DNA from: a virus
Strand: one strand, 5' to 3'
IMG/VR virus record: IMGVR_UViG_3300005289_000003
Span: 22,445 to 86,444 of that record
DNA length: 64,000 nt
Shown: piece by piece, positions 579 through 14,764 of the stretch
Layout: the number at the start of each line of letters is the position of its first letter
Position numbering within the stretch: position 1 is the first letter of the stretch
Program-made: the position numbers and the translations under genes
Notes under the pieces: model-generated
Database searches by the model: none
Seen by the model: the letters and a program-made list of their open reading frames with translations, nothing else
What the model was told of the DNA's origin: nothing

Positions 579-809
579 ATGGTTACCATTTACTTCCCTG
601 CCTACACAGCTAAGTTCAAGCTTCAGGATCGGGTTTACCTGACCAACAAGATTTCATCAGGTCTGGGGACTGTAGTCGGCATCCACGCTCCATGGTCGAT
701 TGGCTTTGTAAGCGTTGGCGTTCGATACTCCGTCTCCTGGGATCGGAACAGGAAGACTCTCAACGGTCCGGCCATGGAATCCGAAGAGGAATTGTCTAAG
801 GTGATCTGA
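579..809 (+). CDS. hypothetical protein
   Basis: Strong SD AAGGAGGAG before ATG; TGATG coupling to next ORF. Confidence 0.75.
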   Translation: MVTIYFPAYTAKFKLQDRVYLTNKISSGLGTVVGIHAPWSIGFVSVGVRYSVSWDRNRKTLNGPAMESEEELSKVI

Positions 810-1030
810 TGCCCAGAGCTAAGGCGACTCATCCTTTCCACCTGGTTCAGGTCGGTATTCCTTCGTACAACCCGCTAGAAGAGAAGCCTGTCTTGCGCAT
901 CACTGCGATAGACGAAAAAGACGGCAGGTTATTGGAGGGAGACTTCACCCCAGAGGAATTTAGAGTCTGGGCAGCCTCCTTGAACAAGTGGGCTGATCTA
1001 TACGACGATATGGTTAGTCGCAAGAAGTAA
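809..1030 (+). CDS. hypothetical protein
   Basis: Stop/start overlap with upstream ORF. Confidence 0.7.
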   Translation: MPRAKATHPFHLVQVGIPSYNPLEEKPVLRITAIDEKDGRLLEGDFTPEEFRVWAASLNKWADLYDDMVSRKK

Positions 1031-1095
1031 TACTTGTGGTCCCGATGAAAATAGCCACTAGTGCCACGGTCAAGGTTCGGGATAGCCGTTGGTAT

Positions 1096-1168
1096 GGGGT
1101 CATAGCTCAGATGGAAGAGCGGAGCACTGAAAATGCTCAGGTCCGTGGTTCGATTCCACGTGTCCCCA
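1096..1168 (+). tRNA. tRNA-Phe(GAA)
   Basis: Anticodon arm GAGCA-CT-GAA-AA-TGCTC, T loop TTCGATT. Confidence 0.93.
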
Positions 1169-1218
1169 CGGGAGGCCCTGAGAGGGCTCCTAACAAGATC
1201 ACCTTTGAAGGGGGTGTC

Positions 1219-1629
1219 ATGGCAGCGTCAGCAACCCCTCGGGTCCGTACGGCCCGTTCAGGGGCTTCCAAGAAGGCAGCTACACCAGTAGCCGACCCCA
1301 TGGTTGTGGAGATGGACTTCAAGCCAAGTTCCGGGGCACGCTTCGTCTACGATCCGGAAGACATTCCGAAGATTGTGATGGCCTTTGAGGGGCTACACGC
1401 GATCCTCTCGGCTGAATTCCTGGCAGAGGCCAAGACTCCGGATATCGTCAAGGTTCTGGTAGACAACGGCTATACCCTGTCGACCACCAGTGACCCGAAG
1501 TATGGGGCACTGTATGAAGGCCCGTTCATCACCTTGACCTACAAGAAGACTCTTCTTCGTCTGTCCGTGGTGGTTACCAAGGACAGCATCAAGGCAGACT
1601 TCCGGACCTATTACGAGACCAGAGGATAA
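1219..1629 (+). CDS. hypothetical protein
   Basis: ORF 1036-1629; start moved to ATG 1219 (GAAGGGGG SD) to avoid overlap with tRNA-Phe. Confidence 0.7.
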   Translation: MAASATPRVRTARSGASKKAATPVADPMVVEMDFKPSSGARFVYDPEDIPKIVMAFEGLHAILSAEFLAEAKTPDIVKVLVDNGYTLSTTSDPKYGALYEGPFITLTYKKTLLRLSVVVTKDSIKADFRTYYETRG

Positions 1630-1811
1630 GTTTCCTTCAGGGAATTGATGCCCCAGGATTTGCGCCATGCGTCCTGGGAGTCCCTGAAGGAGCGGCAGGG
1701 AAGGAAGCGCGGGCAATCCCCCACACGTGCCCGTGAGACTCTGGCTCCCCGTGGTTCCCTGATTGGACGACAGGGTTAATCTTCGTGGTAGCTTCCTTCC
1801 CTGTCAGTTAG

Positions 1812-1887
1812 GCCCCTGTAGCCAAGTTCGGGGAAGGCATCCGTCTTATACGCGGAAGATACGTTGGTTCAAATCCAACCAGGGGTA
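1812..1887 (+). tRNA. tRNA-Ile(TAT)
   Basis: Acceptor GCCCCTG/CAGGGGT, anticodon arm TCCGT-CT-TAT-AC-GCGGA, T loop TTCAAAT. Confidence 0.88.
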
Positions 1888-1926
1888 CTGTTTTTGACCT
1901 ATCCACTTACCCTAGGGAATCATTTA

Positions 1927-2046
1927 GTGAAGCACACGCACACGTGCCAGAATGCAGACTGTAAGAAAGTGTTCTACTGTACTGGCACGGGAGAACACCA
2001 GAGTGAATGCACGCATTGTGGAAACAAATATACCTTCACAAGCTAG
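1927..2046 (+). CDS. small Cys/His zinc-ribbon protein (39 aa)
   Basis: MKHTHTCQNADCKKVFYC...CTHCG; paralogous to the adjacent ORF. Confidence 0.65.
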   Translation: MKHTHTCQNADCKKVFYCTGTGEHQSECTHCGNKYTFTS

Positions 2047-2056
2047 GGGTTAATGG

Positions 2057-2188
2057 GTGGCTTCTCACTCGCACACATGTCAGAACACGTCATGTGGCAA
2101 GACGTTCCAATGCAATAAGGTAGGACCCCACACGTTGGCGTGTCCTGATTGTGGTTCCGATACATCAGGCCACACGCACGCTCACTAA
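2057..2188 (+). CDS. small Cys/His zinc-ribbon protein (43 aa, not in ORF track)
   Basis: MASHSHTCQNTSCGKTFQC...CPDCG; shares HxHTCQNxxCxKxFxC...HxxxCxxCG with the previous ORF. Confidence 0.65.
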   Translation: MASHSHTCQNTSCGKTFQCNKVGPHTLACPDCGSDTSGHTHAH

Positions 2189-2196
2189 TTTCATAA

Positions 2197-2269
2197 TCCC
2201 CTGTGGTCTAATCTGGCAAGACATCGGATTTTGGTTCCGATCATCTAGGTTCAAATCCTGGCAGGGGAG
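2197..2269 (+). tRNA. tRNA-Gln(TTG)
   Basis: Acceptor TCCCCTG/CAGGGGA, anticodon arm TCGGA-TT-TTG-GT-TCCGA. Confidence 0.93.
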
Positions 2270-2294
2270 CGGCATTGCGAAAGGAGGATTGCGA

Positions 2295-2891
2295 ATGCCG
2301 GGTTTCAACCCTGATGGCTCTTATAGAGTCTTTGATTCTGAAGCGGAAAGACTAGAAAACCAAGAGGCTGTAAGAAGAATCATTCAGGGTTTGCACACCA
2401 AGTATCCTGACCCGAGGGTAAGCCCACGTCCGGGTAATCCTGAAAAATGGGTTGGGAGTCTGAAGATGCCCAAAAAGATAGAGTTCAAAGATGGTGTGTT
2501 CCAATACGTGGGACCGCCAACCAAATCGGAAGGTACTGAAAACAAAATGGCGCGTGACAGTGGTATGGACGTCAAGAGCTACAGCCCGTCGGACCCCAAG
2601 TTCGCCAGTGACGAGACTCCTTTCGAAGTCGGCCAGATCATCTCCATCGTGGGTCGCCACGGCGAGAGCGGTACCCACCTGCTGATCACGGACGTTCAGG
2701 CAGACACGGAGGTTCGTCACGAGGGTTCACCGGTCGGTGGCACCTACTACACCGGCTACGCTTCCAACGATTACGACCGTTCCACCCAGGTCATCAAGGT
2801 GGAGAACGGCACGGCCGTGACCGTGTGGACCGAGTACGACGTTCCGGTTACCCCGAAGGGTCTCCAGTCGCTTTCCTTCCCGAAGCGGTGA
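2295..2891 (+). CDS. hypothetical protein (possible internal start at 2547)
   Basis: SD AAGGAGG before ATG 2295; the part from ATG 2547 is strongly biased to C/G-ending codons. Confidence 0.7.
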   Translation: MPGFNPDGSYRVFDSEAERLENQEAVRRIIQGLHTKYPDPRVSPRPGNPEKWVGSLKMPKKIEFKDGVFQYVGPPTKSEGTENKMARDSGMDVKSYSPSDPKFASDETPFEVGQIISIVGRHGESGTHLLITDVQADTEVRHEGSPVGGTYYTGYASNDYDRSTQVIKVENGTAVTVWTEYDVPVTPKGLQSLSFPKR

Positions 2892-2980
2892 CCCTGACCT
2901 GATACCCAGGTCTAGATAAGCTCCTACCGGTCGACAGACGACATAAGCCCTGTTACGGCAACGTCGGGCCGGTAGGTCTA

Positions 2981-3052
2981 GCCTCTATAGCTCAACGGAT
3001 AGAGCACCGTGCTACGAACGCGGGTGTCCAGGTTCGATTCCTGGTAGAGGTA
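2981..3052 (+). tRNA. tRNA-Arg(ACG)
   Basis: Anticodon arm CCGTG-CT-ACG-AA-CGCGG. Confidence 0.93.
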
Positions 3053-3218
3053 CGCAATAAAACTTCCAGCAATGGCTATAGGGTCGATCCGGACGTCTCC
3101 CGGTAGGTTGCTGGTTGGCTTGTATGACACGGGTGAGCAATTGCTATTGTGGAACTTGCCTCCACAAAGAACCAACCCTCCCAAGGCATGGGCTCAGAAT
3201 GGTTGGCCGTGTCATTAT

Positions 3219-3292
3219 TCCCCGTTAGCTCAACTAGGCAGAGCAACGCACTGTTAATGCGTCGGTTGAATGTTCGAATCATTCACGGGGAG
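3219..3292 (+). tRNA. tRNA-Asn(GTT)
   Basis: Acceptor TCCCCGT/ACGGGGA, anticodon arm ACGCA-CT-GTT-AA-TGCGT. Confidence 0.93.
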
Positions 3293-3295
3293 CCT

Positions 3296-3442
3296 AGTCC
3301 CCAATGCGTCAAACTGATTGCCGATATTTGTAAGGTCGTGGTATCGCAGCATGAGGCAAGGTAGGTTGTAGCTATGTTTTCGCACCTTGGACATAGTTAT
3401 ACGGTGCTCCTAACCAATAGACCTTCCTGCGCATTGGGGACT
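3296..3442 (+). ncRNA. putative structured ncRNA closed by a 13-bp stem
   Basis: AGTCCCCAATGCG (3296-3308) pairs with CGCATTGGGGACT (3430-3442); internal hairpin; no plausible ORF. Confidence 0.45.
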
Positions 3443-3477
3443 TCAAAGCATCCTGACGTCAGTCAGGAGCGAAGCAT

Positions 3478-3724
3478 CCTAGGGAGAGTGATACGCCAAC
3501 ACCACTAATACGTGTCCCGTGAGCCCTAGGTAAGTCGGGACGTTGGCAGATTGGGTAAAAGGGCAAGCTTCCGTTTAGGTGGTGACAGCCGAGAGAAGAA
3601 GCCTGGGCACCCTAGGGTTAGATGAGGCAATATAGCGTTGACCTGACCCGTAGGACTGTCACCCTGTAGCGCGATGGAAGAATACGCATGCGCGATAGTC
3701 GTACTTCTAGGGTGCCACCCAATC
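3478..3724 (+). ncRNA. putative multi-pseudoknot ncRNA
   Basis: Six complementary segment pairs of 6-10 bp, several crossing (see findings). Confidence 0.45.
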
Positions 3725-3741
3725 GTTACATTGGAGACTAA

Positions 3742-4074
3742 ATGATAAAGTTTGGTGTCTTTGCTAAGACATTGGAAGAAGCCTGGTTCAAGGCTCACAA
3801 CGAAGCAAAGCTCTTCTTCGGTGAGTCCAGGGTTCATAGCGTCAGGTTTCTGGGTGGCACCAAAGAAGATGATGACGCCTATTACTGCACCTTTGCCGCA
3901 GACTTGGTAAATGATGCGGATGCGGTTTCTGAGTACTACCCAACGGGTCGGCCATCTTCTCCGCCACCTTTCGAACCTCTGACTACTCCTCTGCCACTCT
4001 TGGAGGCCACGGCGATAATCGGGCCTACCACAGAGGAAAGAGAAGTCCTCAGAGTCAGCTATACAACCGAATAG
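3742..4074 (+). CDS. hypothetical protein
   Basis: GGAG SD and ORF. Confidence 0.65.
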   Translation: MIKFGVFAKTLEEAWFKAHNEAKLFFGESRVHSVRFLGGTKEDDDAYYCTFAADLVNDADAVSEYYPTGRPSSPPPFEPLTTPLPLLEATAIIGPTTEEREVLRVSYTTE

Positions 4075-4081
4075 ATGGCTT

Positions 4082-4166
4082 GCCATGGATGCACGCATGG
4101 GACGTGCGCCAGTCTGTAGAACTGGTGTCTAACAAGGCTAAGTAGGTTCGATTCCTACCCGTGGCA
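4082..4166 (+). tRNA. tRNA-Tyr(GTA), atypical D arm
   Basis: Anticodon arm CCAGT-CT-GTA-GA-ACTGG, long variable arm, 5-bp D stem GCACG/CGTGC, A at position 8. Confidence 0.85.
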
Positions 4167-4168
4167 CT

Positions 4169-4275
4169 GGAGACAATGAGGATAGAGCAGAGTCCCTAAC
4201 CCGTAAGGGTGGGACGGTTTCCATAGCTGGCCACCGGCGAAACTCTGCTTTCACGGTTCAATTCCGGAGTCTCCT
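4169..4275 (+). ncRNA. tRNA-like element A (acceptor and T arm; long helix in place of D/anticodon arms)
   Basis: GGAGAC/GTCTCC; TCACGG-TTCAATT-CCGGA; related to element B at 6042. Confidence 0.6.
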
Positions 4276-4301
4276 CTATTCAAAAACTATAAGGAGTATT
4301 T

Positions 4302-4511
4302 GTGGGCAGAGCTACACACACGACAACCACGATTAGGCGAATCATTGTTGGTCAAGAGTTCTATCTCTCTATCGACGGAGTCACCGCTTACAAGCTCCTG
4401 ACCAAGTCAGACATTGGTGGAGCAAGCTACAACGTCACCTTCAAGCGTGCAGACAATGAAGGTGAAACCGAGCATGGAGACTGGCCGTACAACACCAAGG
4501 TCTACATCTGA
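4302..4511 (+). CDS. hypothetical small protein
   Basis: AAGGAG SD before GTG. Confidence 0.7.
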   Translation: MGRATHTTTTIRRIIVGQEFYLSIDGVTAYKLLTKSDIGGASYNVTFKRADNEGETEHGDWPYNTKVYI

Positions 4512-4816
4512 CGGGGTCATGCCTGTTGGCCCGTTGCTGGTGAGCCTGTAGGCGAGCGGAGCACACCAGCCCAAAGAGGCTCACCTTTGCAGGGGTAGAG
4601 CCTCAATAGGTGGCCCCCGTGACGGTACCCAGAAGCCACGTGGTAGGGCTCTGGTGAGCTACCGGGGGCAGAGGCCCTAGGTTGTGTTCCAGCCCTTCCT
4701 AGGGCCTCTCAGACGTCTCTGTGGGAGCTTCCCTGTCCCCCCGTCAGGGCCACAGAGACAGGGGGAACCCTGGTGGGTTCCACTCCCCCCGGAATTCCTA
4801 GGGTTCCCCCGTTCAA

Positions 4817-4889
4817 GCGTCGTTAGCTTAATTGGTAGAGCTACGGTCTCCAAAACCGTCAGGTGAGGGTTCGAATCCCTTGCGGCGTG
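4817..4889 (+). tRNA. tRNA-Trp(CCA)
   Basis: Anticodon arm ACGGT-CT-CCA-AA-ACCGT. Confidence 0.92.
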
Positions 4890-4908
4890 CTCCAAAGGAG
4901 GAAACTAT

Positions 4909-5034
4909 ATGAGCAAAAATATATCTGGTATGGAGTGTGGCTGCATGCTGGTTATTGAGTACGGTAAAGCGCCGTACATCATCAGGCACGCTAATTGCAA
5001 GAAGGCCCACGGCACACCAGAGAAGAAGAATTGA
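4909..5034 (+). CDS. small CGC...CxxxH protein (41 aa, not in ORF track)
   Basis: AAGGAGG SD; MSKNISGMECGCMLVIEYGKAPYIIRHANCKKAH; paralog at 6843. Confidence 0.7.
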   Translation: MSKNISGMECGCMLVIEYGKAPYIIRHANCKKAHGTPEKKN

Positions 5035-5035
5035 C

Positions 5036-5539
5036 ATGACCATGTCAGATGCCGATCACATGCACCCGCATGTGGCTAGGGCTCTTCACGATGCTTTGAA
5101 GAGTGGGGACTACAAGCAAGGTCACAACTTCCTTCACAAGGTAATGAAGGACATAGGTGATCTTTACTGCTGCTTGGGTGTCCTTTGCCGGCTAGCCATT
5201 AACGCTGGCGTAGTGGTTCCTCAGGAAGAGTTCAATCTAGGGAACGGCAATCAGGTAGTCATCAAGTATGAAGGTGATGACGGGTGGCTTGGCCTGATAG
5301 TCAGTGAGTGGGCCGGAAAGCACGCTACTCCTTCTTATAGGCTTCCTCTCTGGTACGACGAAGAGAAGAAGATTCCTTTTGCTGGGGACCTTGACGAAGA
5401 AATGGACCGTATTACTCTGGCCATCTTGAATGATGGAGATAGCAATAGGTTCCATGGTCTGACATTCTCTCAAATAGCCGACATCGTTTTGTTCATGTGG
5501 GGATACGGCGATGAAGACGAAGTATCGGCTAACGATTAG
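5036..5539 (+). CDS. conserved phage hypothetical protein (YCCLGVLC motif)
   Basis: LKSGDYKQG...YCCLGVLC...LND...TFSQIAD pattern recalled from phage hypotheticals. Confidence 0.75.
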   Translation: MTMSDADHMHPHVARALHDALKSGDYKQGHNFLHKVMKDIGDLYCCLGVLCRLAINAGVVVPQEEFNLGNGNQVVIKYEGDDGWLGLIVSEWAGKHATPSYRLPLWYDEEKKIPFAGDLDEEMDRITLAILNDGDSNRFHGLTFSQIADIVLFMWGYGDEDEVSAND

Positions 5540-5670
5540 ACGGAGTAACGGAAGACTCGTTCGCGAATACGGCAACCTGAGCAAGTACGCGGCTAAAGTC
5601 CGTAGAGATGAACTAGAAGACAAATACGATTCCGGCTATTACGTCGAATTGACACCCGATAGGAAACCCA

Positions 5671-5958
5671 ATGCTGAATAATCCAGGTCTCGTCTACGTC
5701 TGCTACATGGTCAGTGGGGACCAGGAGCCACGGCCCATCAAGGTGGGTCTGACGTATGACGAAGCCTTGAAGGAAGTCAACGCGAATAAGAGGGCTGTCA
5801 AAACCGTACTCAGGTTCGCGTGGATCGCTGGCCTGTTCAGTAAGGAAGCGCGCAAGAACATGCAAACCCTGAAGGGTGTGAAGTACTACATCACGGGGTA
5901 CCGGCCCACGGCGGTCAACAACCTTGCCACGGTGGATGAGGAGTGGGCAGAACAATAA
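5671..5958 (+). CDS. hypothetical protein
   Basis: ORF with phage-like codon usage. Confidence 0.65.
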   Translation: MLNNPGLVYVCYMVSGDQEPRPIKVGLTYDEALKEVNANKRAVKTVLRFAWIAGLFSKEARKNMQTLKGVKYYITGYRPTAVNNLATVDEEWAEQ

Positions 5959-5966
5959 GGAAATAA

Positions 5967-6039
5967 GCCCCATTAGCTCAGTGGACAGAGCGACACCCTT
6001 CTAAGGTGAAGGCCGTAGGTTCGACTCCTACATGGGGTA
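5967..6039 (+). tRNA. tRNA-Arg(TCT)
   Basis: Acceptor GCCCCAT/ATGGGGT, anticodon loop CT-TCT-AA. Confidence 0.92.
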
Positions 6040-6041
6040 CG

Positions 6042-6140
6042 GGGGCACGATGTGGAAACGCGGGGAAGTAGGAAACAGTTTCTTCCTCCTTTATGTTTCC
6101 TATGATGACCGTTGTCACGGTTCGATTCCGGGGTGCCCCT
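6042..6140 (+). ncRNA. tRNA-like element B
   Basis: GGGGCAC/GTGCCCC; TCACGG-TTCGATT-CCGGG; followed by TCTATTCA as in element A. Confidence 0.6.
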
Positions 6141-6516
6141 CTATTCACTCTGAAGAGTGACCTGTAAGCACACCTATAAGTAGACTCTCCCTTCTGTCTG
6201 GCAGGATAAGAGCCACGGCTAGCATGCTGTCTGTGGTGACTGAAACTGCCCCGTACGCGGAGAATGGCAAAGGGAGCGCATGTCACGCCACTGTGGATGA
6301 GTCATAGCCCTACCGAGTGCGCCGGTTCTAAGGGGTTAGGCGTTCGTCCGGAAGAGCGCTGGAACGAATGAGGGCCTACTAGGTGGAGTCGATTGGACTA
6401 CTCGGGTCAGGTTGTCTAGGGTCTTAGAGCTGACGCAACCTGATGCAAAAGGGACGGGTAGGAGACTGAGAAGCCGATAATGTAGGCCCTCATTTGTTTT
6501 GTCCAAAGGAGGAAAA

Positions 6517-6843
6517 ATGACAGATTTCATTATTGGCTGGATTCTTCCACCATTGATGGTTATCGTGCTAGTAATCATGAATGTGTGTGGATACATGACA
6601 AAGAAGGGATACGATAAATACGTATGCCTGTCATGGGGAATAATGGCTATTTATTCTCTCGTCAAGGTTGATATCGGCGGGATAATCATCTACCTTACTT
6701 TTTCTCTTTATCACGGTTACAAGTGGTGGAAGAACCGCAAGGATGACGACTGGACCGACAAGGGTAACAAGCCAAAGCGGAAGCGTTCCCGTAACTGGGT
6801 TCCGAAGCTAAAGAACCCTGAACCAACAAAGTCGGTGGTGTAG
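6517..6843 (+). CDS. membrane protein
   Basis: AAGGAGG SD; hydrophobic segments and a basic tail. Confidence 0.75.
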   Translation: MTDFIIGWILPPLMVIVLVIMNVCGYMTKKGYDKYVCLSWGIMAIYSLVKVDIGGIIIYLTFSLYHGYKWWKNRKDDDWTDKGNKPKRKRSRNWVPKLKNPEPTKSVV

Positions 6844-6944
6844 TGGCGACCGAGAAGCGTCCGCTAAGTTGCGGTTGTGTCCTGGTATTCGTGGATGGCA
6901 AGTTTTCACATCAGGACGTTAAGAACTGCAACAGAGGGCATTAG
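6843..6944 (+). CDS. small CGC...CxxxH protein (33 aa, not in ORF track)
   Basis: TAGTG coupling; MATEKRPLSCGCVLVFVDGKFSHQDVKNCNRGH. Confidence 0.65.
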   Translation: MATEKRPLSCGCVLVFVDGKFSHQDVKNCNRGH

Positions 6945-7038
6945 TTATTAATGGGTGGGCGAGGAAGACACCGCGCGTGGTCGGTGCTTGGAAACCGCCC
7001 TATGCCTCTGCACCAGATAGCCAGAGGTAGCCACGCAT

Positions 7039-7125
7039 GGGGAGTTGGCAGAGTGGCCGAATGCACTAGTCTTGAAAACTAGAGGGGCCTTAAAACCCCC
7101 AAGGGTTCAAATCCCTTACTCCCTT
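7039..7125 (+). tRNA. tRNA-Ser(TGA)
   Basis: Anticodon arm CTAGT-CT-TGA-AA-ACTAG, long variable arm. Confidence 0.92.
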
Positions 7126-7126
7126 C

Positions 7127-7237
7127 GTGATACAAGAAGATGGTTGTACCTGCTGCGAGGATGGCGGGTTTACCGAGGGATATGGTAATAGCCATCGGTG
7201 CGGCAATTGTGGACACACTGAAGGAGCCCATAAGTAA
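7127..7237 (+). CDS. CxCC micro zinc-finger paralog 1 (36 aa)
   Basis: MIQEDGCTCCEDGGFTEGYGNSHRCGNCGHTEGAHK. Confidence 0.7.
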   Translation: MIQEDGCTCCEDGGFTEGYGNSHRCGNCGHTEGAHK

Positions 7238-7377
7238 TGGCCGAATGTACCTGTTGCACAAATGGTGCCTTTGTTGAAGGACTCAACCCGAACCTGTGTA
7301 ACAACTGCTTTCACCTGAAGTCGCTTCACTCCATCGTGGTGAGCTTCTTCAAGTTCTGGAATAGGATTAGCTTCTGA
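7237..7377 (+). CDS. CxCC micro zinc-finger paralog 2 (46 aa)
   Basis: TAATG coupling, AAGGAG SD; MAECTCCTNGAFVEGLNPNLCNNCFHLKSLH... Confidence 0.8.
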   Translation: MAECTCCTNGAFVEGLNPNLCNNCFHLKSLHSIVVSFFKFWNRISF

Positions 7378-7490
7378 TGGGTGTCTGTATCTGCTGCCTC
7401 TTTGGTGACTTCAAGGGTGGTGGCGAAAAGGACATCAAGGATATATGCGGGTGTGGCCATCACAGGAAAGACCACCAGAAGAGGTTTTAA
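7377..7490 (+). CDS. CxCC micro zinc-finger paralog 3 (37 aa)
   Basis: TGATG coupling; MGVCICCLFGDFKGGGEKDIKDICGCGHHRKDH. Confidence 0.8.
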   Translation: MGVCICCLFGDFKGGGEKDIKDICGCGHHRKDHQKRF

Positions 7491-7603
7491 TGTTCTTCTT
7501 TCTCTTCGGAGCATGTAGTTGCTGCTTGGCAGGCTCCTTCTCTGAGGGTGGCAACGACGGTAAGTGCTCCCTCTGCAATCACACGTACGGAGCACACACC
7601 TAG
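7490..7603 (+). CDS. CxCC micro zinc-finger paralog 4 (37 aa)
   Basis: TAATG coupling; MFFFLFGACSCCLAGSFSEGGNDGKCSLCNHTYGAHT. Confidence 0.8.
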   Translation: MFFFLFGACSCCLAGSFSEGGNDGKCSLCNHTYGAHT

Positions 7604-7608
7604 AAATA

Positions 7609-7697
7609 GGTAGGGTGGCAGAGTGGCCTATTGCGCGTCCCTGCTAAGGACGTAAGGGAACAACACACCTTCCAGGGTTCGAATCCCTGCCCTACCG
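7609..7697 (+). tRNA. tRNA-Ser(GCT)
   Basis: Anticodon arm CGTCC-CT-GCT-AA-GGACG, long variable arm. Confidence 0.93.
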
Positions 7698-7725
7698 CGC
7701 ACCATTAAAAAGGAGGAAATAAAGG

Positions 7726-7842
7726 ATGCTTTGGTACCTATTTGCAGGTTGCTACTGTTGCTTCATCGGTGACTTCATCGAGAGTGATAGCGACCGGAAA
7801 ACCTGCAAGAGATGTACGCATGTGAGGGGTGCTCATTCTTAA
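7726..7842 (+). CDS. CxCC micro zinc-finger paralog 5 (38 aa)
   Basis: AAGGAGG SD; MLWYLFAGCYCCFIGDFIESDSDRKTCKRCTHVRGAHS. Confidence 0.8.
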   Translation: MLWYLFAGCYCCFIGDFIESDSDRKTCKRCTHVRGAHS

Positions 7843-7988
7843 TGGGCTCTTGCTCATGCTGTAACTCTGGTGGATTCGAAGCTAGCGCTACAGCCCTCAT
7901 TTGCAAACATTGTCTTCATGTCAGGTCTGCTCACTCTGGCTACTTCCACTACATGGCTTCCTTCCTCCGCTACATGACAGGAAGGTAA
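7842..7988 (+). CDS. CxCC micro zinc-finger paralog 6 (48 aa)
   Basis: TAATG coupling; MGSCSCCNSGGFEASATALICKHCLHVRSAH... Confidence 0.8.
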   Translation: MGSCSCCNSGGFEASATALICKHCLHVRSAHSGYFHYMASFLRYMTGR

Positions 7989-8065
7989 ATAGCGTGGAGT
8001 ATGACGGGCCTCCACGGTGGTGAACGTGCGGCCGTAGGTAGCCACCGAAACAAATCCCGTCAAAT

Positions 8066-8141
8066 GCCCCCGTAGCTTAGCCGGGTTTAAAGCGCCACCC
8101 TGTCAAGGTGGAGACCGAGGGTTCAAATCCCTTCGGGGGCG
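8066..8141 (+). tRNA. tRNA-Asp(GTC)
   Basis: Anticodon arm CCACC-CT-GTC-AA-GGTGG. Confidence 0.94.
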
Positions 8142-8288
8142 CGTGCTACGTAATGGCAATTGCGTAGAGTCTGTGGTCAGCAACCGCCAATTGCTCCGCG
8201 CGACAGACACGCATTACGTGTGGCCGAGTGACCGGCAATGCTTTGGTGGTGGAGATGGTCACGCTGCCTACCAGAGAGCCACACGGAA

Positions 8289-8362
8289 CGGGTCATAGCT
8301 CAATTTGGTGGAGCGCTTGGTTTGGGACCAAGAGGTTACAGGTTCAAATCCTGTTGGCCCGA
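8289..8362 (+). tRNA. tRNA-Pro(TGG)
   Basis: Acceptor CGGGTCA/TGGCCCG, anticodon arm CTTGG-TT-TGG-GA-CCAAG. Confidence 0.93.
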
Positions 8363-8458
8363 CGCGAAAGGAGGAATGATGCGTAGATTCCTGGAAGAGC
8401 TTCTAGAGAGAATCGCGGACATGAACGACAACGACACGAGAGAGCTTGGCAAGGATCG

Positions 8459-8647
8459 GTGAGTATAGCCACCTTTGGAATCTTTTGTTTCCTCTGGTTG
8501 GCCGCTGCTTACTCGCTCTGTATTTACTTGATAAAGACAGTTCGGGACGACACGTTTAACCTTAGGGTCACAATTGCTTGCTTCTCTGTCCTGATACCTG
8601 TGGGCATCCTGCTACTGGTGGTGTCCTTTGTGTCAGTGGTGACTTAG
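8459..8647 (+). CDS. small membrane protein
   Basis: Two hydrophobic helices. Confidence 0.6.
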   Translation: MSIATFGIFCFLWLAAAYSLCIYLIKTVRDDTFNLRVTIACFSVLIPVGILLLVVSFVSVVT

Positions 8648-8670
8648 CAAGATTTGAAGGAGGAATTGAG

Positions 8671-8838
8671 ATGGGTTTCGCGATAGCCATAGTCGTCATG
8701 CTCGTTGCCCTGGTGGTTGTGATGTCTGCTCTACTGGCGGTTGACCAGCACATCCGGAACAGGCCACCCTTGGCCCCCACCATCAAGCAAGACATTGCTG
8801 AAGCGGTGGAGCGTTACCGGACGGAGCTTTACCAGTGA
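8671..8838 (+). CDS. small membrane protein
   Basis: AAGGAGG SD before ATG 8671; N-terminal hydrophobic helix. Confidence 0.65.
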   Translation: MGFAIAIVVMLVALVVVMSALLAVDQHIRNRPPLAPTIKQDIAEAVERYRTELYQ

Positions 8839-9128
8839 GCTTGGTTGAAGCGATATACGAAACCGCGCTACTAGACATCCTGGTTGCCCTGGAAGCGGGA
8901 CACCCTGAAGAAGCCGCCAGGATGGCCCGTAAGGCTCTGGGAGTACCTGACCCATCCAAGGACACCCAGGACGGTTCAGAGGCTGTCAGCGTGGCTCCTG
9001 GGGGCCTTCATGGGCTCAGTGGGCTTGAGACCTTGCCGGTACTTGTCAGGGACTCAGGGGGTATGCCCGTCAGGGGTAACGGGCTACCTCCAATCAATTG
9101 GCGTCGTCCGTGGATGAGGAAACGGTGA
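8835..9128 (+). CDS. hypothetical protein
   Basis: GTGA overlap with upstream ORF. Confidence 0.55.
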   Translation: MSLVEAIYETALLDILVALEAGHPEEAARMARKALGVPDPSKDTQDGSEAVSVAPGGLHGLSGLETLPVLVRDSGGMPVRGNGLPPINWRRPWMRKR

Positions 9129-9364
9129 GCTTCTTCCGCCGTAGATTTTGGATCCGAAGTCCAGAGCAAAAAGCTTTCGCCAGGATCGTTGCCCTTGGGT
9201 GTGAGCTTCTTCAGGAAGAGTTTCCTGAACTCTCAAAGAGGGAGTTCGACGTAATAGCGGTGACGATCCTGGAAGAGCTAATGGAGTCGGATCCGGATAC
9301 TCTCATTAGTCCCTCTTCGCTCGTGTGGCGCGTGAGAGAACGGGTCAGGTCTTCTAGGCTCTGA
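9125..9364 (+). CDS. hypothetical protein
   Basis: GTGA overlap; GAGG SD. Confidence 0.6.
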   Translation: MSFFRRRFWIRSPEQKAFARIVALGCELLQEEFPELSKREFDVIAVTILEELMESDPDTLISPSSLVWRVRERVRSSRL

Positions 9365-9480
9365 TTTCGTGTGGTCTGCCTGAGGGACACTGAAGAGGGC
9401 AGGGTAACGATGGACACATAAGAGCGTGGCTCTCTAAAAGCACGTCGCTGCCCAACCATCGCCGCACCAATGGATAAGGT

Positions 9481-9810
9481 ATGGACGAAGTAGACACTGT
9501 TAAAAGAGAAGTGTCAATAAAAGGTCAGTGGGTTGACCGGATTGTTAAAGACCCAGACTTGTCGGAAAGAGAGAAACTTCTCCTTCTGGTTATTAGTAAC
9601 TTCATGAATAGATCAGGTATAGCTTTTGTCAATAGGATGAATGTTGCTGCCTATAGTGGCATTAGCTCTGCTAAGATCAAAAGCATGGTAGAAAGTCTAG
9701 CCGAAAGACATTACCTATCCGTTAGATTCACACTCCCTGGTACAAACACAAAGAACAGTCCAAATTATAGGAAGTTTGAAGTTCACGGATTGATAGAAGC
9801 GGATGGGTGA
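9481..9810 (+). CDS. winged helix-turn-helix DNA-binding protein
   Basis: DLSEREKLLLLVI...RMNVAAYSGISSAKIKSMVESLAERHYL, typical phage HTH pattern. Confidence 0.65.
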   Translation: MDEVDTVKREVSIKGQWVDRIVKDPDLSEREKLLLLVISNFMNRSGIAFVNRMNVAAYSGISSAKIKSMVESLAERHYLSVRFTLPGTNTKNSPNYRKFEVHGLIEADG

Positions 9811-10002
9811 AGCATGAAGGCTGGACACATCAACGTAGGCAATGGCTTTAAGTGGACACCAGACGATGATGATTGCGTCTGTGTGGGCAGAGAAGACGAA
9901 CCAGATGAGACCAGGATTCGCATCATCTGGCGCTATAAGGACAGTCAGAGCAATTACACCACTTCGGTATCAAGAGAAGACACGCTTTATTAAGGAATAA
10001 CT

Positions 10003-10242
10003 ATGGGTTTCAAGTTGCGTACTTACTCCAGTGTCGCACTGTTGGTAGCGCTTATCCTGACTGCTGCTATCCTGGCGAGTTGCAAGCCTGCCGGTAGCCT
10101 TTCGGGGCCTCCCCTGGGTGTCTGCAAGTACAAGGCAAATGCCGTGGTCCTGAAGGATGACGGTAAGTGGAAGTGCTACAGCACCAAGAAGCAGAATGGC
10201 GTCACGGTCCTGGTCCGTCAGAAGACTTGGGACAAGAAGTAA
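10003..10242 (+). CDS. putative lipoprotein
   Basis: Signal peptide with lipobox LASC. Confidence 0.65.
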   Translation: MGFKLRTYSSVALLVALILTAAILASCKPAGSLSGPPLGVCKYKANAVVLKDDGKWKCYSTKKQNGVTVLVRQKTWDKK

Positions 10243-10455
10243 ATGGGGTTTTGGAGCAACGACGCTCCGAAGCAGAAGTATGGAACCCTAGGAGTGCGTT
10301 CGGAATTCAAGTTCAGCCCTAGTGGATATACCTGTATCGTCACTGGGGTATCCAATGGTGCATACGGCAAACTAGTCATCACCTATAAGATAAAGGGTGG
10401 TGATGGTGGTACCGCCAGTATGGATGTCTACCCAACCGAGAGTTGTTACCTATGA
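10243..10455 (+). CDS. hypothetical small protein
   Basis: Abuts upstream ORF. Confidence 0.6.
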   Translation: MGFWSNDAPKQKYGTLGVRSEFKFSPSGYTCIVTGVSNGAYGKLVITYKIKGGDGGTASMDVYPTESCYL

Positions 10456-10631
10456 CTCCTGATGAACTGGCGGAATTTGCCGGTAGGTTTATGTTCCTGC
10501 TAGACAAAGACTGGGTTTACCGCGCTCCTGAGACGTTCATCAAGCCTGCCCGTATCTGGTGGGCTCTAGCGAATAAGAATTGGGAGATGGCAAACCGGTT
10601 GCTATCGGAGCTTGAATCCGATAGCGTCTAA
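10452..10631 (+). CDS. hypothetical protein
   Basis: ATGA overlap. Confidence 0.6.
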   Translation: MTPDELAEFAGRFMFLLDKDWVYRAPETFIKPARIWWALANKNWEMANRLLSELESDSV

Positions 10632-10645
10632 ACAACTGAATACAT

Positions 10646-10718
10646 GGTGTCTGTGGCAGAGTGGCTATGCACTGGATTGTGGGTCCAGACCACGTGGGTT
10701 CAAATCCCACCAGACACA
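10646..10718 (+). tRNA. tRNA-His(GTG)
   Basis: G-1 encoded; acceptor GTGTCTG/CAGACAC; anticodon arm CTGGA-TT-GTG-GG-TCCAG. Confidence 0.9.
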
Positions 10719-10719
10719 C

Positions 10720-10863
10720 GAGGTACCGAAGCGAAGAAGACGGATACTTCAATGGATAAACCGTAGGTCGTTGGTTCAAATCCAACCCTCCCAACCATTG
10801 GGAGGTAGCTCAGTGGTTAGAGCAACGGTGAAAAGACTGTCTTCGATTATTTCTCGGTACCTC
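10720..10863 (+). ncRNA. Y RNA unit 1, YrlA-type (circularly permuted tRNA module)
   Basis: Terminal stem GAGGTACCGA/TCGGTACCTC, GAAGCG motif; T arm, acceptor closed by ACCAT loop, then D arm; upstream of Ro60. Confidence 0.85.
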
Positions 10864-10869
10864 CCAGTT

Positions 10870-11009
10870 TGGCACTGAAGCGGAAGGTAAGGGTTACTCC
10901 TAATATGAATAGGGTAGACCAGGTTCGAATCCTGGCCGCTCCACAATAAGGGGCGGTAGTGTAATGGCAGCACACTAAAAATACCCAAACCTAATATTTC
11001 TCAGTGCCA
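10870..11009 (+). ncRNA. Y RNA unit 2, YrlA-type (circularly permuted tRNA module)
   Basis: TGGCACTGA/TCAGTGCCA; CCAGG-TTCGAAT-CCTGG, CCGCTCC/GGGGCGG, GTGT-AATGGCA-GCAC. Confidence 0.85.
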
Positions 11010-11017
11010 CCCAGTTT

Positions 11018-11140
11018 GACCCGAAGCGTAGTAACTGGTTACTTCTCTCCGCCAGGGCCTAGCCCGGAGGGCACCTACTTCCAAGCTTTTAAACTTGGTT
11101 TCGTAGGAACCTGTGTGCCAATTACGATATTTCTCGGGTC
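11018..11140 (+). ncRNA. Y-RNA-like unit 3
   Basis: GACCCGA/TCGGGTC; GAAGCG...TACTTC...TATTTCTC scaffold; two cargo hairpins. Confidence 0.75.
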
Positions 11141-11148
11141 GCCTAGAC

Positions 11149-11314
11149 GGCTTCAGAAGCGAAGAGAGAAGATACTTCTACAGAGAAAGAAAGTCCGTCC
11201 GACCAACGGCGCGCTACCTACTCCACACGTCATTGAGTAGGAGCAAGGGTGTAATTACCAGATGTTGTGATTTGTTAATACCACCCGTCTTTTCTCAAGT
11301 ATTACTCTGAAGTC
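11149..11314 (+). ncRNA. Y-RNA-like unit 4
   Basis: GGCTTCAGA/TCTGAAGTC; same scaffold; three cargo hairpins. Confidence 0.75.
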
Positions 11315-11321
11315 TCCTTGT

Positions 11322-11414
11322 TGGGTCAGAAGCGGACGGATAGGTTACTTCACAAACACCACTATTAATGGTGTCTCTAAGAGACAAACTTATTCGAATT
11401 ATTTCTCTGACCCA
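11322..11414 (+). ncRNA. Y-RNA-like unit 5
   Basis: TGGGTCAGA/TCTGACCCA; same scaffold; short cargo. Confidence 0.75.
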
Positions 11415-11418
11415 CCCT

Positions 11419-11505
11419 AAAGCAAGAGGCACCGAAGCGGAGAATACGGTTACTTCTTTCGGCTGATAGATCCGTATTCGTTTATTACTCGGTGCTCCTT
11501 GCTTT
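11419..11505 (+). ncRNA. Y-RNA-like unit 6 (minimal)
   Basis: Extended terminal stem ending GCACCGA/TCGGTGC; GAATACGG/CCGTATTC; same scaffold. Confidence 0.75.
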
Positions 11506-11532
11506 TATTACTCTCCCGAAAGGAGAAGCGGC
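11506..11532 (+). promoter_or_regulatory. putative translational operator: permuted Y-RNA scaffold covering the Ro60 SD
   Basis: TATTAC-TCTCC-cgaaa-GGAGA-AGCGG-c-ATG. Confidence 0.55.
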
Positions 11533-13140
11533 ATGGGAAAGCTAGGTAAGCAAAGCGCAAAGCTTCAGGTGGAAAGTGCGAACAAGAAGGCTGGACTGAT
11601 TCGCACCAGCGGGGGAAAGACCACCACTCATGAAGGTGGAACCGGGCACCTACGCGATACCAAGTCGGAACTATTCCTTCTTGGTGTTACCAACATGGTG
11701 TCTGAGCAAACCTTCTATGAGCGCGGTTCGGATCGTGACAAGCGCTTTATGGGTCTGCTCATCACGGTGACCCATCAGGATGCCGATTGGGTATCTCGGT
11801 TCCTACCGTGGCTACGCGGACCAGGCAACATGAGAACCGCTTCTATCGTCGGTGCGGCTGTCTATGCCCGCACCGTCCTGTCCATGGCTCCTGAGGCACG
11901 TGAGGCTCTTTACAGGGCTTTCCCTGGGGCCACGGTCCGGAAGGTTGTGGCGTCCGTCCTACAGCGTCCCGACGAACCAGCAGAGTTCATCTCCTACTGG
12001 CTTCAGGGAAGTGACACCAAGACGCTTCCTGGTGGCGTGCAGCGTGGTCTAGCCGACGCGGTAAAGCGTCTGTACACGGAACGGAACTCCCTGAAGTACG
12101 ACGGACAGAACCAGCCATGGCGTATGTCTGACGTGATTCAGTTGGTTCACCCGGACCCTGATACTGAGGTTCAGTCTCTTCTTTTCGATTACCTTGCCAA
12201 GAAGCGCTTCAGCGGAAGCGAAGCGGTAATCCCAGACGAACTCTTGATGCTTCAGGCAAACAGGAAGCTCTACGAAATCCCTCAGGAGCTACGTCGGGAG
12301 CGTCTGGCAGCAGACCCGAAGTCAATGGCTACCATTCTCCGGAGTGGTGGCATGACCTGGGAATCACTAGCAACGTGGCTAGGTGGTCCTCTGGGTAAGG
12401 AAGGTTGGGAGGCAATTGCTCCTAGCCTGGGAATCTTCGCTCTGGTCCGGAACCTTCGGAACATCAGTGAAGCTGGAGTGAGCAACGAGGTTCAGGAAGC
12501 CCTAGCGGCAAAGATTTCTGACCCTCAGGTAATTGCCAACTCTCGTATGTTCCCTCTTCGCTTCTACACGGCGTATCGGGAAGCCACGAACGTCATATGG
12601 AGCTACCCCCTTGAGAAGGCCCTGATGGCTTCTCTGGGGAACATTCCGAAGTTGGACGGCCGAACGCTGGTACTGATCGACCAATCAGGTTCGATGAATT
12701 TTTCTATGTCGAACAAGTCCACCGTGCGACTCTCGGAACAGGCTGCCTTGTTCGGTATCGCTCTGGGCATGGCTGCCGACAATGCGGATGTCTACGTCTA
12801 CGGGAATTCTCACAAGGAAATCCCGCTACCCAAGGGTGGTTCAATCCTGCCGCTTGTCGCTAAGTACGGTCAGGCTGATATGGGTGGAACCCAGACATGG
12901 ACCACTGCCAGATCCCTTTACCGGGGTCATGACAGAATCGTTATCGTGACGGATGAGCAGAGCCACGATAGCGCGTACGGAATTCCGGATATCCCCATCG
13001 TGACCTTCAACGTTGAGGGCTACAAGGCTGCCCACACGGAATCCTCAAAGAAGAGAATCACCGTGGGTGGTCTGTCGGATGGTGGGTTCAGCCTGATTCA
13101 GGCCATGGACTCCGCCGGTAAGGGTGAGTGGCCTTTCTGA
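11533..13140 (+). CDS. rsr: Ro60/TROVE-domain RNA-binding protein with C-terminal vWA domain
   Basis: THEGGTG...KSELFLL...FYE N-terminus, MTWE, ALVRNLRN, RMFPLRFYTAY, MIDAS DQSGSM, VIVTDEQ. Confidence 0.93.
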   Translation: MGKLGKQSAKLQVESANKKAGLIRTSGGKTTTHEGGTGHLRDTKSELFLLGVTNMVSEQTFYERGSDRDKRFMGLLITVTHQDADWVSRFLPWLRGPGNMRTASIVGAAVYARTVLSMAPEAREALYRAFPGATVRKVVASVLQRPDEPAEFISYWLQGSDTKTLPGGVQRGLADAVKRLYTERNSLKYDGQNQPWRMSDVIQLVHPDPDTEVQSLLFDYLAKKRFSGSEAVIPDELLMLQANRKLYEIPQELRRERLAADPKSMATILRSGGMTWESLATWLGGPLGKEGWEAIAPSLGIFALVRNLRNISEAGVSNEVQEALAAKISDPQVIANSRMFPLRFYTAYREATNVIWSYPLEKALMASLGNIPKLDGRTLVLIDQSGSMNFSMSNKSTVRLSEQAALFGIALGMAADNADVYVYGNSHKEIPLPKGGSILPLVAKYGQADMGGTQTWTTARSLYRGHDRIVIVTDEQSHDSAYGIPDIPIVTFNVEGYKAAHTESSKKRITVGGLSDGGFSLIQAMDSAGKGEWPF

Positions 13141-13343
13141 TGAAAGTAACCATTGGGGAACTAATGGATACCATCAACAAGGTTCTAAATGACCCTGACA
13201 ACCCATTCGACATGGGGCCTGATACGGAAGTGGTGGTGAGTCGCGGTATCTTTCATCCGGACTCACCAGAAGGGAAATTCCAGGTACTAATGGTTGCCCC
13301 TTATCAGGGTAAACTTCATCTGGTAGTTTCCAAGCTTCACTGA
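13140..13343 (+). CDS. hypothetical protein coupled to Ro60
   Basis: TGATG overlap. Confidence 0.65.
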   Translation: MKVTIGELMDTINKVLNDPDNPFDMGPDTEVVVSRGIFHPDSPEGKFQVLMVAPYQGKLHLVVSKLH

Positions 13344-13432
13344 ATGATGTGGTCTAGCACCTAGGTAAGACTCTGTACTAAGGCGCCTTAGGTGTTTGCG
13401 TCGATAGATCGGGTAGTGCAGAGCACCACTAT

Positions 13433-13506
13433 GGATCGCTAGCTCAATTGGTCAGAGCAATGCGCTCTTAACGCATAGGTTCAGGGTTCGAGTCCCTGGC
13501 GATCCA
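13433..13506 (+). tRNA. tRNA-Lys(CTT)
   Basis: Anticodon arm ATGCG-CT-CTT-AA-CGCAT. Confidence 0.94.
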
Positions 13507-13534
13507 CTTAATAGTCCTGTGGTAGAGTGCAGTT

Positions 13535-13957
13535 ATGCCTATTTGCCATGTCTGCTCAAAAGAAGTCGATAGATACGCCAACAACAAGCGTTGCCGAGAA
13601 TGCTATAACGAATATATGCGCGAATATATGAAAAAGCGCTTTCACCAAAAGCGTGCAGAAATGATAGCCATTCTTGGTGGCGTTTGTGTTCATTGTGGAA
13701 CTACAGAAAAGCTGGAATTCGACCACATATTTGAGAATACCAAATCATGGGATATAGGTAAGATTTGGGGACACCGTAAAGTAATAGCTGAATTGAAGAA
13801 GATTCAGTTGCTATGCAATAGCTGCCACAAAAAGAAGTCAGCTAGATATATGAGTGTTGACCATGGTGGCGGTCTATCTGGTAAAGATGGTTGCAAATGT
13901 ACAAAGTGCAAAGCACGCAAAGCAGAATATATGAAGAAATACAATAAGCCCCGTTAG
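13535..13957 (+). CDS. HNH endonuclease (probable free-standing homing endonuclease)
   Basis: CVHCG...LEFDHI...QLLCNSCHKKKS; AT-rich; between two tRNA-Lys genes. Confidence 0.88.
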   Translation: MPICHVCSKEVDRYANNKRCRECYNEYMREYMKKRFHQKRAEMIAILGGVCVHCGTTEKLEFDHIFENTKSWDIGKIWGHRKVIAELKKIQLLCNSCHKKKSARYMSVDHGGGLSGKDGCKCTKCKARKAEYMKKYNKPR

Positions 13958-14021
13958 CCCAACCTGGTAGGGCAATCGGCTTTTAACCGATAGATTGTAG
14001 GTTCAAATCCTACACGGGGCA
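13948..14021 (+). tRNA. tRNA-Lys(TTT)
   Basis: Anticodon arm ATCGG-CT-TTT-AA-CCGAT. Confidence 0.93.
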
Positions 14022-14022
14022 C

Positions 14023-14256
14023 ATGGACATTTACGACGTATTCAGGTCAGTAGCGGATGCCATTCCCAATGGAGGTAATTCACGAAAGAGAATGAGGAGA
14101 CGTGTCAAGGCTTACCGTATGGCTGACAGCATCATGGACCCGAAGTCATTCCTTCGTTCTCAGACCTACTGTCGGATGGGTAAGCACCAGCCTGTAGGCA
14201 AAATGTATTGCATCATCTGCGAGCATTGCCGCAAAGTCCTAGGAAACAACTATTAG
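14023..14256 (+). CDS. hypothetical protein with C-terminal Cys/His motif
   Basis: CRMGKH...CEHC; ATG immediately after tRNA-Lys. Confidence 0.6.
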   Translation: MDIYDVFRSVADAIPNGGNSRKRMRRRVKAYRMADSIMDPKSFLRSQTYCRMGKHQPVGKMYCIICEHCRKVLGNNY

Positions 14257-14328
14257 GGGCCTTAGCTCAGTTGGTAGAGCACTTGCCTTGCAAGCAAGGG
14301 GTGGGGGGTTCGATTCCCCTAGGCTCCA
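14256..14328 (+). tRNA. tRNA-Ala(TGC)
   Basis: GGGGCCT/AGGCTCC with G3:U70; anticodon loop CT-TGC-AA. Confidence 0.94.
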
Positions 14329-14329
14329 C

Positions 14330-14533
14330 ATGAACAATCAAAAGTTGGTAGTAGGTTTCTGTGATGGCAGCATGGAAATCCACGATTGGCAGCGTGGTTA
14401 TAGCTTGACCACGGATGTCGGTACTGGAGAGATGCTTTGGATCTATAAGAAAGAAGGTGCCAAATATGTAAAGATTGGTAGCCTGGAAGATATCGACTGG
14501 TTTACCATCAGTGGCAAGATAACAATCAAGTAA
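14330..14533 (+). CDS. hypothetical protein
   Basis: ATG immediately after tRNA-Ala. Confidence 0.55.
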   Translation: MNNQKLVVGFCDGSMEIHDWQRGYSLTTDVGTGEMLWIYKKEGAKYVKIGSLEDIDWFTISGKITIK

Positions 14534-14541
14534 TGGTTTAA

Positions 14542-14615: not shown

Positions 14616-14617
14616 CG

Positions 14618-14760: not shown

Positions 14761-14764
14761 TTAA

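Follow-up and report, generated by a model that had tools for sequence, protein, structure and literature searches.

A tandem array of six short Cys/His-rich open reading frames under protein-level constraint in the tRNA operon of an uncultured phage

Background

Small zinc-finger proteins as such are already known. In Haloferax volcanii, stand-alone C(P)XCG micro-proteins of fewer than 70 amino acids (aa) carry a single cysteine metal site and occur as many paralogues with differing surfaces, acting as small binders or regulators whose partners are mostly not known (PMC11241148, PMC10716476, PMC6562870). TraR and lambda Orf73 are plasmid or phage proteins of ~ 70 aa or less that bind host RNA polymerase and possess one Cys4 zinc site (PMC9239242). 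In the COG0523 chaperones, including the GTPases ZigA and YjiA, the tri-cysteine sequence C-x-C-C is an established motif that binds Zn(II) with high affinity (PMC11052692, PMC2770081). Here, we describe six open reading frames (ORFs) of 36–48 codons, ORF1 to ORF6, that carry the same tri-cysteine within a longer Cys/His motif and lie between tRNA genes at positions 7127–7988 of a 64,000-nt stretch of phage DNA (hereafter, the window; bases 22445–86444 of the IMG/VR virus record IMGVR_UViG_3300005289_000003).

The array differs from each of these systems. The Haloferax genes are archaeal, chromosomal and scattered, and their products have two C(P)XCG knuckles (Cys4), whereas the phage proteins show a Cys5His2 pattern, C-x-C-C ... 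C-x2-C-x-H-x4-H, and are encoded by coupled tandem genes in a tRNA operon; no sequence similarity between the two groups is detectable. A glycine follows C-x2-C only in ORF1 and ORF3, and the second knuckle of ORF3 is C-x-C. No zinc-ribbon family of Pfam reaches its cut-off (the best being Zn_ribbon_10, E 0.04, for ORF6), and fold searches remain at Z < 3. TraR and Orf73 combine a DksA-like coiled coil with a C4 finger and are single-copy proteins without tRNA linkage, and the Pfam scan of the six proteins revealed no similarity to them. In COG0523 proteins, C-x-C-C belongs to a loop of a 300–400-aa G3E GTPase, while the array proteins (36–48 aa) have no GTPase domain, so the likeness exists at the motif level without homology. 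The SWIM zinc finger (PF04434) is a short beta-strands-plus-helix unit, which resembles the topology predicted for the array proteins. Its signature, C-x-C-xn-C-x-H, is found in all six, although four residues are weak evidence; SWIM has no equivalent of the third and fourth Cys or of the second His, and it is usually part of large proteins. At E <= 10, the SWIM profile, which was matched in 14 of 14 control genomes, hit neither the six proteins nor any of the six frames of the phage genome. Neither the sequence family, nor its ligand pattern, nor a six-fold coupled array between tRNAs was found described.

Genes of fewer than 50 codons are routinely missed, and five of the six array members are in no protein collection. 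Together, the six make up a family that is clearly constrained at the protein level and lacks any described relative; the phage lineage has no cultured member. Should they bind metal and host targets, as proposed below, they would represent a compact new scaffold among small phage effectors. Their tRNA-bounded placement also makes it possible to test whether tRNA processing can define bacterial mRNAs, one of them possibly leaderless. Their importance is tempered by the tiny size of the family (one phage and two metagenomic proteins) and by the fact that nothing points to a specific function.

Layout of the array

All six ORFs lie on the plus strand and share the motif C-x-C-C-x2-G-x-F-x8-11-C-x1-2-C-x-H-x4-H. 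An earlier note on this DNA had listed six such ORFs, and both the ORF list and a six-frame motif search place them at the same coordinates. Used as a regular expression in all six frames of the window, the motif matched these six ORFs only. The earlier note had also proposed a search of translated phage genomes with a profile hidden Markov model (HMM) of the six, which recovered the same six and nothing else from the complete 86,444-bp genome (E 3.6e-18 to 2.9e-14). Since residue frequencies give a rough estimate of ~ 1e-7 chance motif matches per window, six copies in a row are not a product of chance. The invariant residues are C, C, C, G, F, C, H and H, together with the fourth Cys, which MAFFT displaces in ORF3. 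Every protein contains exactly five Cys, all at motif positions. The features of the region are as follows.

7039..7126, plus strand: tRNA-Ser(UGA) (ARAGORN; Rfam tRNA, 57.7 bits), 3' end abutting the GTG of ORF1
7127..7237, plus strand: ORF1, 36 aa, GTG start, without a Shine-Dalgarno site, acidic (isoelectric point, pI, 4.9)
7237..7377, plus strand: ORF2, 46 aa, TAATG overlap with ORF1, AAGGAG upstream, hydrophobic/amphipathic C-tail
7377..7490, plus strand: ORF3, 37 aa, TGATG overlap with ORF2, basic, second knuckle C-x-C
7490..7603, plus strand: ORF4, 37 aa, TAATG overlap with ORF3, AGAGG 5 nt upstream, hydrophobic N-terminus
7609..7698, plus strand: tRNA-Ser(GCU) (ARAGORN, Rfam), splitting the array into 4 + 2
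7710..7716, plus strand: AAGGAGG Shine-Dalgarno site, 9 nt ahead of the ATG of ORF5
7726..7842, plus strand: ORF5, 38 aa, hydrophobic N-terminus
7842..7988, plus strand: ORF6, 48 aa, TAATG overlap with ORF5, aromatic/basic C-tail predicted to be helical
8003..8060, plus strand: stem-loop (minimum free energy fold) in the 77-nt spacer from the ORF6 stop to tRNA-Asp
8066..8142, plus strand: tRNA-Asp (ARAGORN, Rfam), closing the two-gene block

The junction bases and ARAGORN confirmed the described chaining of four ORFs (7127–7603) by TAATG/TGATG overlaps and the presence of two more after tRNA-Ser(GCT). Stop codon and ATG share one base at four junctions: ORF1/2, ORF3/4 and ORF5/6 (TAATG) and ORF2/3 (TGATG). 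Some starts are uncertain, as in-frame ATGs also exist upstream of ORF4 (7445, giving 52 aa) and ORF6 (7812, giving 58 aa). The coupled starts of ORF4 and ORF6 are preferred because they match the pattern of the other junctions; in addition, ORF2, ORF3, ORF6 and a metagenomic relative, P0008 (see below), start three residues ahead of the first Cys. For ORF1, the GTG at 7127 is the sole possible start, and it leaves no room for a ribosome-binding site because it comes right after the C next to the tRNA discriminator. ORF2 is the only member of the array that has ever been called as a gene.

Conservation of the encoded proteins

An important question is whether these short frames are conserved as proteins or as DNA. 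In a protein-guided alignment, the paralogues are only 43–54% identical as DNA. At the eight alignment-invariant columns, identity is 100% at the first two codon positions but only 48% at the third, a value that is random for two-fold codons. The mean proportion of nonsynonymous differences (pN) is 0.45 versus 0.80 for synonymous differences (pS), the latter being saturated. The suggestion that selection acts on the proteins despite diverged DNA is thereby borne out, and, judged by this pattern, the six ORFs are diverged paralogues under protein-level selection.

Three different reading frames are used by the six ORFs, and all are open and equipped with start signals. Purine-rich Shine-Dalgarno sites precede ORF2 to ORF6 by 5–12 nt (AAGGAG, AGGA, AGAGG, AAGGAGG and GAGGGG, respectively). 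The RNA of positions 7127–7608 is no more structured than shuffled sequences (z -0.85), so this part of the array is not a structured RNA, and Rfam recognized only tRNAs over the array region. Codon-periodic conservation across three frames has no non-coding explanation. On the minus strand, two antisense ORFs (7326–7595, 89 aa, and 7090–7329, 79 aa) each span several plus-strand genes in one frame, and one of them overlaps a tRNA; we take them to be by-products of the Cys/Gly-rich sense codons.

Relatives of the domain

Among 1.84 billion representative proteins, the profile of the six found ORF2 itself and only two others, both from Joint Genome Institute (JGI) metagenomes. P0008 (90 aa) carries the domain at residues 1–32 and is 59% identical to ORF2 over 32 residues; P0007 (163 aa) carries it at residues 74–102 and is 66% identical to ORF2 over 29 residues. 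The sequence G-L-N-P-N-L-C is common to all three, and ORF2 is the array member nearest to the two metagenomic proteins. Since P0007 and P0008 contain the domain, it exists beyond the array, within ORFs of ordinary size. A word-indexed search of 5.8 billion proteins returned the same three sequences, and the ESM Atlas gave scores of <= 0.85, which serve as leads only. At residues ~ 20–50 of P0007, a second ligand set appears in reversed order, with C-x5-H-x-H followed ~ 10 residues later by C-x-C-C-G; this set may be a second copy of the domain, permuted or degenerate, and might be relevant to how two domains pair.

Scans of the six proteins and of P0007 and P0008 against Pfam, PHROGs and NCBIfam produced sub-threshold noise only, including an FtrD-like family (E 0.015) and Zn_ribbon_10 for ORF6, phrog_30950 (E 0.03) and, for P0008, the DnaJ Cys-rich region (E 0.06). 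The WhiB, CDGSH, CSL, metallothionein and ferredoxin families of Pfam gave no match at E <= 10 for the six, nor did metallothionein, CDGSH, CSL or WhiB for P0007 and P0008, with HMMER filters removing most matches above E ~ 0.1. A sequence profile search of the PDB found no real match. It therefore holds that, across Pfam, PHROGs, NCBIfam and PDB, no well-characterized family covers the six. The likeness of ORF2 to PEAK1/MPRIP suggested in the earlier note found no counterpart, as nothing of that kind emerged in the Pfam, NCBIfam and PDB sequence searches, in which no direct comparison with reference sequences was included. The FAM221 profile (PF14753) had no match at E <= 10 in the genome or the six proteins; this profile of 196 positions was set against a 30-residue domain, so a very distant link is possible.

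Searches of genomes and contigs were similarly sparse. Two motif pattern scans of IMG/VR yielded 9 loci, none of which has an open frame with the motif. In GTDB, a pattern scan gave at least 120 loci; among the matches listed, an out-of-frame Collinsella match dominates and three are in frame, all without the first Cys. An alignment of ORF2, P0007 and P0008 found nothing in viral contigs or GTDB genomes and, among metagenome contigs, nothing but a piece of this phage with 99.93% identity. Searching 50,697 phage records by tblastn with ORF2 and ORF5 found nothing, nor did the array profile find a match in GMA6, ChisanaKitsune and Cantare, the three isolates closest to the phage in DnaE. In the data now available, the family thus appears to be very rare, consisting of one phage and two metagenomic proteins.

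Predicted structure and ligands

AlphaFold models based on the eight-sequence alignment have the same topology for ORF2 and ORF6, with predicted local distance difference test (pLDDT) values of 66 and 64: a helical turn at C-x-C-C, a beta-hairpin from Phe to the fourth Cys, the C-x2-C knuckle, a short helix with the two His, and a helical C-tail. Structure prediction followed by Foldseek, as recommended in the earlier note, therefore gave a consistent topology for two paralogues but no fold match in PDB or BFVD; the best Z in a wide VIA-align search, 2.9, is too low to be meaningful.

The conserved Cys and His are residues of the classic metal-ligand type. On inspection, C-x2-C knuckles are formed by the first and third Cys and by the fourth and fifth Cys. 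These four Cys would make a rubredoxin- or zinc-ribbon-like set, leaving over one Cys and two His. A total of seven ligands may suggest two metals with a bridging ligand, or an eighth ligand supplied from elsewhere. The Cys/His scaffold is probably zinc-binding.

Around this skeleton, the proteins vary widely. The pI values of ORF1 to ORF6 are 4.9, 7.7, 8.4, 5.9, 7.6 and 8.8, respectively. The two hydrophobic N-termini that had been described are present in ORF4 and ORF5, each over eight residues. The claim of two amphipathic C-tails holds in part: ORF2 and ORF6 have aromatic tails of 15–17 residues, with a moderate hydrophobic moment (muH) in ORF2 (0.46) versus a weak one in ORF6 (0.26).

Proposed role and alternatives

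We consider it likely that the six ORFs are genes of an undescribed metal-binding mini-domain of ~ 30 residues, diversified into a set of small binders with different partners. Five Cys and two His, along with the Gly and Phe, would hold a tiny fold around a metal, most plausibly one or two Zn(II). Old tandem duplications would have given rise to six versions in which the metal skeleton was kept and the rest diverged. We read them as a set of binders because the skeleton is constant while pI (4.9–8.8), N-termini and C-tails differ; the partner of each paralogue could be a different host protein, membrane or RNA. In this scheme, RNase P and a 3' processing enzyme would excise the tRNAs, releasing a four-gene mRNA (~ 7127–7608) and a two-gene mRNA (~ 7699–8065), within which the overlapping stop and start codons would couple translation. 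In the two-gene mRNA, the 5' end would carry a strong Shine-Dalgarno site and the 3' end a stable hairpin, and ORF1 would be read from a leaderless or near-leaderless mRNA, a type that actinobacterial ribosomes handle well. Metal binding, metal identity, translation, RNA processing and binder function are all inferred here.

Several results weigh against this proposal. A codon-usage likelihood model built on 21 genes of this phage, which assigned 221 of 231 forty-codon test segments to their correct frame, does not favour the micro-ORF frames: summed over the six, the +2 and antisense frames score 28 and 34 nats better. We attribute this failure to the extreme Cys/His/Gly/Phe content, as the array is atypical in composition, being rich in TGY, CAY, TTY and GGN codons, with a GC content at codon position 1 (GC1) of 0.43 versus 0.55. 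The sole other copy of the array is 99.93% identical, so no divergent relative allows purifying selection to be measured between orthologues. No RNA run was listed among the sequencing runs that contain the locus. The AlphaFold models reach only moderate confidence and have no counterpart in PDB or BFVD. Seven ligands are an awkward number for either one or two ordinary tetrahedral sites, and the binder function is a guess from architecture.

Could the ORFs then be no genes at all, and merely chance ORFs or a repeated DNA or RNA element open by accident? The codon-usage test, the failure of gene finders to call five of the six, and the lack of an RNA run would agree with this reading. However, conservation at the protein level only, with third-position wobble, leads us to rule out a chance or non-coding origin; in addition, six ORFs in three frames are all open with start signals, no unusual RNA structure is present, and homologous domains occur in other metagenomes. 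Such an origin is extremely improbable.

The proteins could also have other roles. An iron-sulfur (Fe-S) cluster serving redox or nitric oxide sensing in the manner of WhiB, or metallothionein-like Cu/Zn sequestration, seems unlikely to us; WhiB-like Fe-S proteins occur in actinobacteria and their phages. Such a role would agree with five Cys and two His within 30 residues, with an odd number of ligands (seven) that is ill-suited to simple Zn sites, with the weak match of ORF6 to the FtrD-like membrane iron-sulfur family, which lies below the cut-off, and with a C-x-C-C triplet typical of metal chaperones and metallothioneins (PMC11052692, PMC2770081). However, no WhiB, CDGSH, metallothionein or ferredoxin family was matched, and the conserved Gly and Phe and the predicted hairpin-plus-helix resemble the core of a zinc knuckle or treble clef. 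It is similarly doubtful that the six are subunits of one hetero-oligomer whose stoichiometry is set by translational coupling. The one-base overlaps at four junctions would fit this model; the hydrophobic N-termini of ORF4 and ORF5 and the C-tails of ORF2 and ORF6 could pack against one another, the eighth ligand might come from a partner chain, and the N-terminal half of P0007 holds the permuted ligand set. Nevertheless, many phage operons show coupling without encoding a complex, both P0008 and P0007 look like single-copy forms, and no positive sign of contact was obtained. The prediction of a complex of ORF5, ORF6 and two Zn scored 0.02, which speaks neither for nor against contact.

Two further roles are very unlikely in our estimation. 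Candidate Cys-rich leaderless attenuator upstream ORFs are described in mycobacteria (PMC4633059), and consecutive Cys codons near each ORF start and the leaderless-type start of ORF1 would be compatible with regulatory leader peptides that sense Cys-tRNA supply and tune downstream RNA expression or processing. For such a function, a run of Cys would be enough, yet Gly, Phe, two distal Cys and two His are also invariant at fixed spacing despite saturated divergence; moreover, the domain is found within proteins of 90 and 163 aa, and the genes downstream of the blocks are tRNA genes rather than biosynthetic ones. Clusters for ribosomally made, modified natural products (RiPPs) typically hold multiple diverged tandem precursors, and the array, with its short, Cys-rich, diverged peptides in tandem, has that appearance. 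Against precursor peptides, no radical-SAM gene was found in the phage genome and no maturation enzyme among the 20 neighbouring ORFs scanned, and conservation extends over the whole peptide instead of being split between a conserved leader and a variable core. A more far-reaching variant of the binder proposal, which we regard as quite improbable, is that tRNA processing both frees and activates the mRNAs, with a leaderless first cistron, and that the six microproteins share a new binuclear Cys5His2 fold and each block or redirect a host factor of their own. With the same low probability, these factors might be, for example, paralogous defence, sigma/anti-sigma or tRNA/RNA-repair proteins; adjoining Ro60 and tRNA genes would suit such a module.

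Possible transcript boundaries

No convincing promoter or terminator was found inside the tRNA operon. The segment 7699–8065 folds better than all 100 shuffles (z -2.44). It includes the stable hairpin at ~ 8003–8060, which takes up most of the 77-nt spacer and has no Rfam match; this stem-loop possibly protects the 3' end of the bicistronic mRNA.

At four tRNAs (Ser-UGA, Asp, Lys-UUU and Ala), a GTG or ATG begins at the next base after the last C, at 7127, 8143, 14023 and 14330, opening frames of 36, 51, 77 and 67 codons, respectively, with no room for a Shine-Dalgarno site. By a rough calculation, chance would give ~ 0.1 such starts among 23 tRNAs. This arrangement suggests that tRNA 3' processing may generate some mRNA 5' ends of the phage, although the ORF at 8143 is doubtful, since it extends into tRNA-Pro. 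All 23 of these tRNAs, that is, all except the single minus-strand gene, have a C after the discriminator, and none encodes the full CCA. Efficient translation in mycobacteria requires no more than an ATG or GTG at the 5' end (PMC4633059), and by analogy, a processing-made leaderless mRNA for ORF1 would be a reasonable idea.

Phage and genomic setting

The source record is a complete IMG/VR virus genome of 86,444 bp with direct terminal repeats. It encodes a terminase, a portal, a tape measure protein, collagen-like tail fibres, a DnaE-type polymerase, a UvsX/RecA-like recombinase and a Ro60-like protein, as well as 24 tRNA genes, 22 of which lie in a single plus-strand run from 255 to 15554. 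The phage is an uncultured siphovirus without a close isolate, and searches of IMG/VR with Ro60 and DnaE revealed no close relative. Its portal is < 40% identical to portals of Streptomyces and Gordonia phages, and its DnaE has 42–44% identity with that of Gordonia phage GMA6 and relatives. Since these nearest isolates infect Streptomyces and Gordonia, the host is probably an actinobacterium.

Near the array are tRNAs, the Ro60 gene and small ORFs without a family; the tRNAs and Ro60 give a hint of RNA biology. By eye, the ORFs flanking the array, 6499–6843 (114 aa) and 8459–8647 (62 aa), look like membrane proteins with long hydrophobic runs, and neither has a Pfam family.

Beyond the source record, a JGI metagenome contig of 2,741 bp corresponds to window positions 7008–9748 with 99.93% identity; its two differences (8747 and 9125) lie outside the array, which is itself identical. 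The entire array stretch is present in one soil metagenome run, which is probably the source. Contigs from an aquatic run and a wastewater run mostly cover tRNAs, with two short near-identical pieces of the array region in addition. The aquatic piece has one difference from the phage. The wastewater piece, a 152-nt contig labelled RNA-Seq that is possibly DNA, matches 7955–8105 with 8 differences (~ 95% identity), of which those listed, 8001 and 8030–8034, are past the ORF6 stop. Judged by this contig, a slightly diverged relative of the phage appears to exist outside soil.

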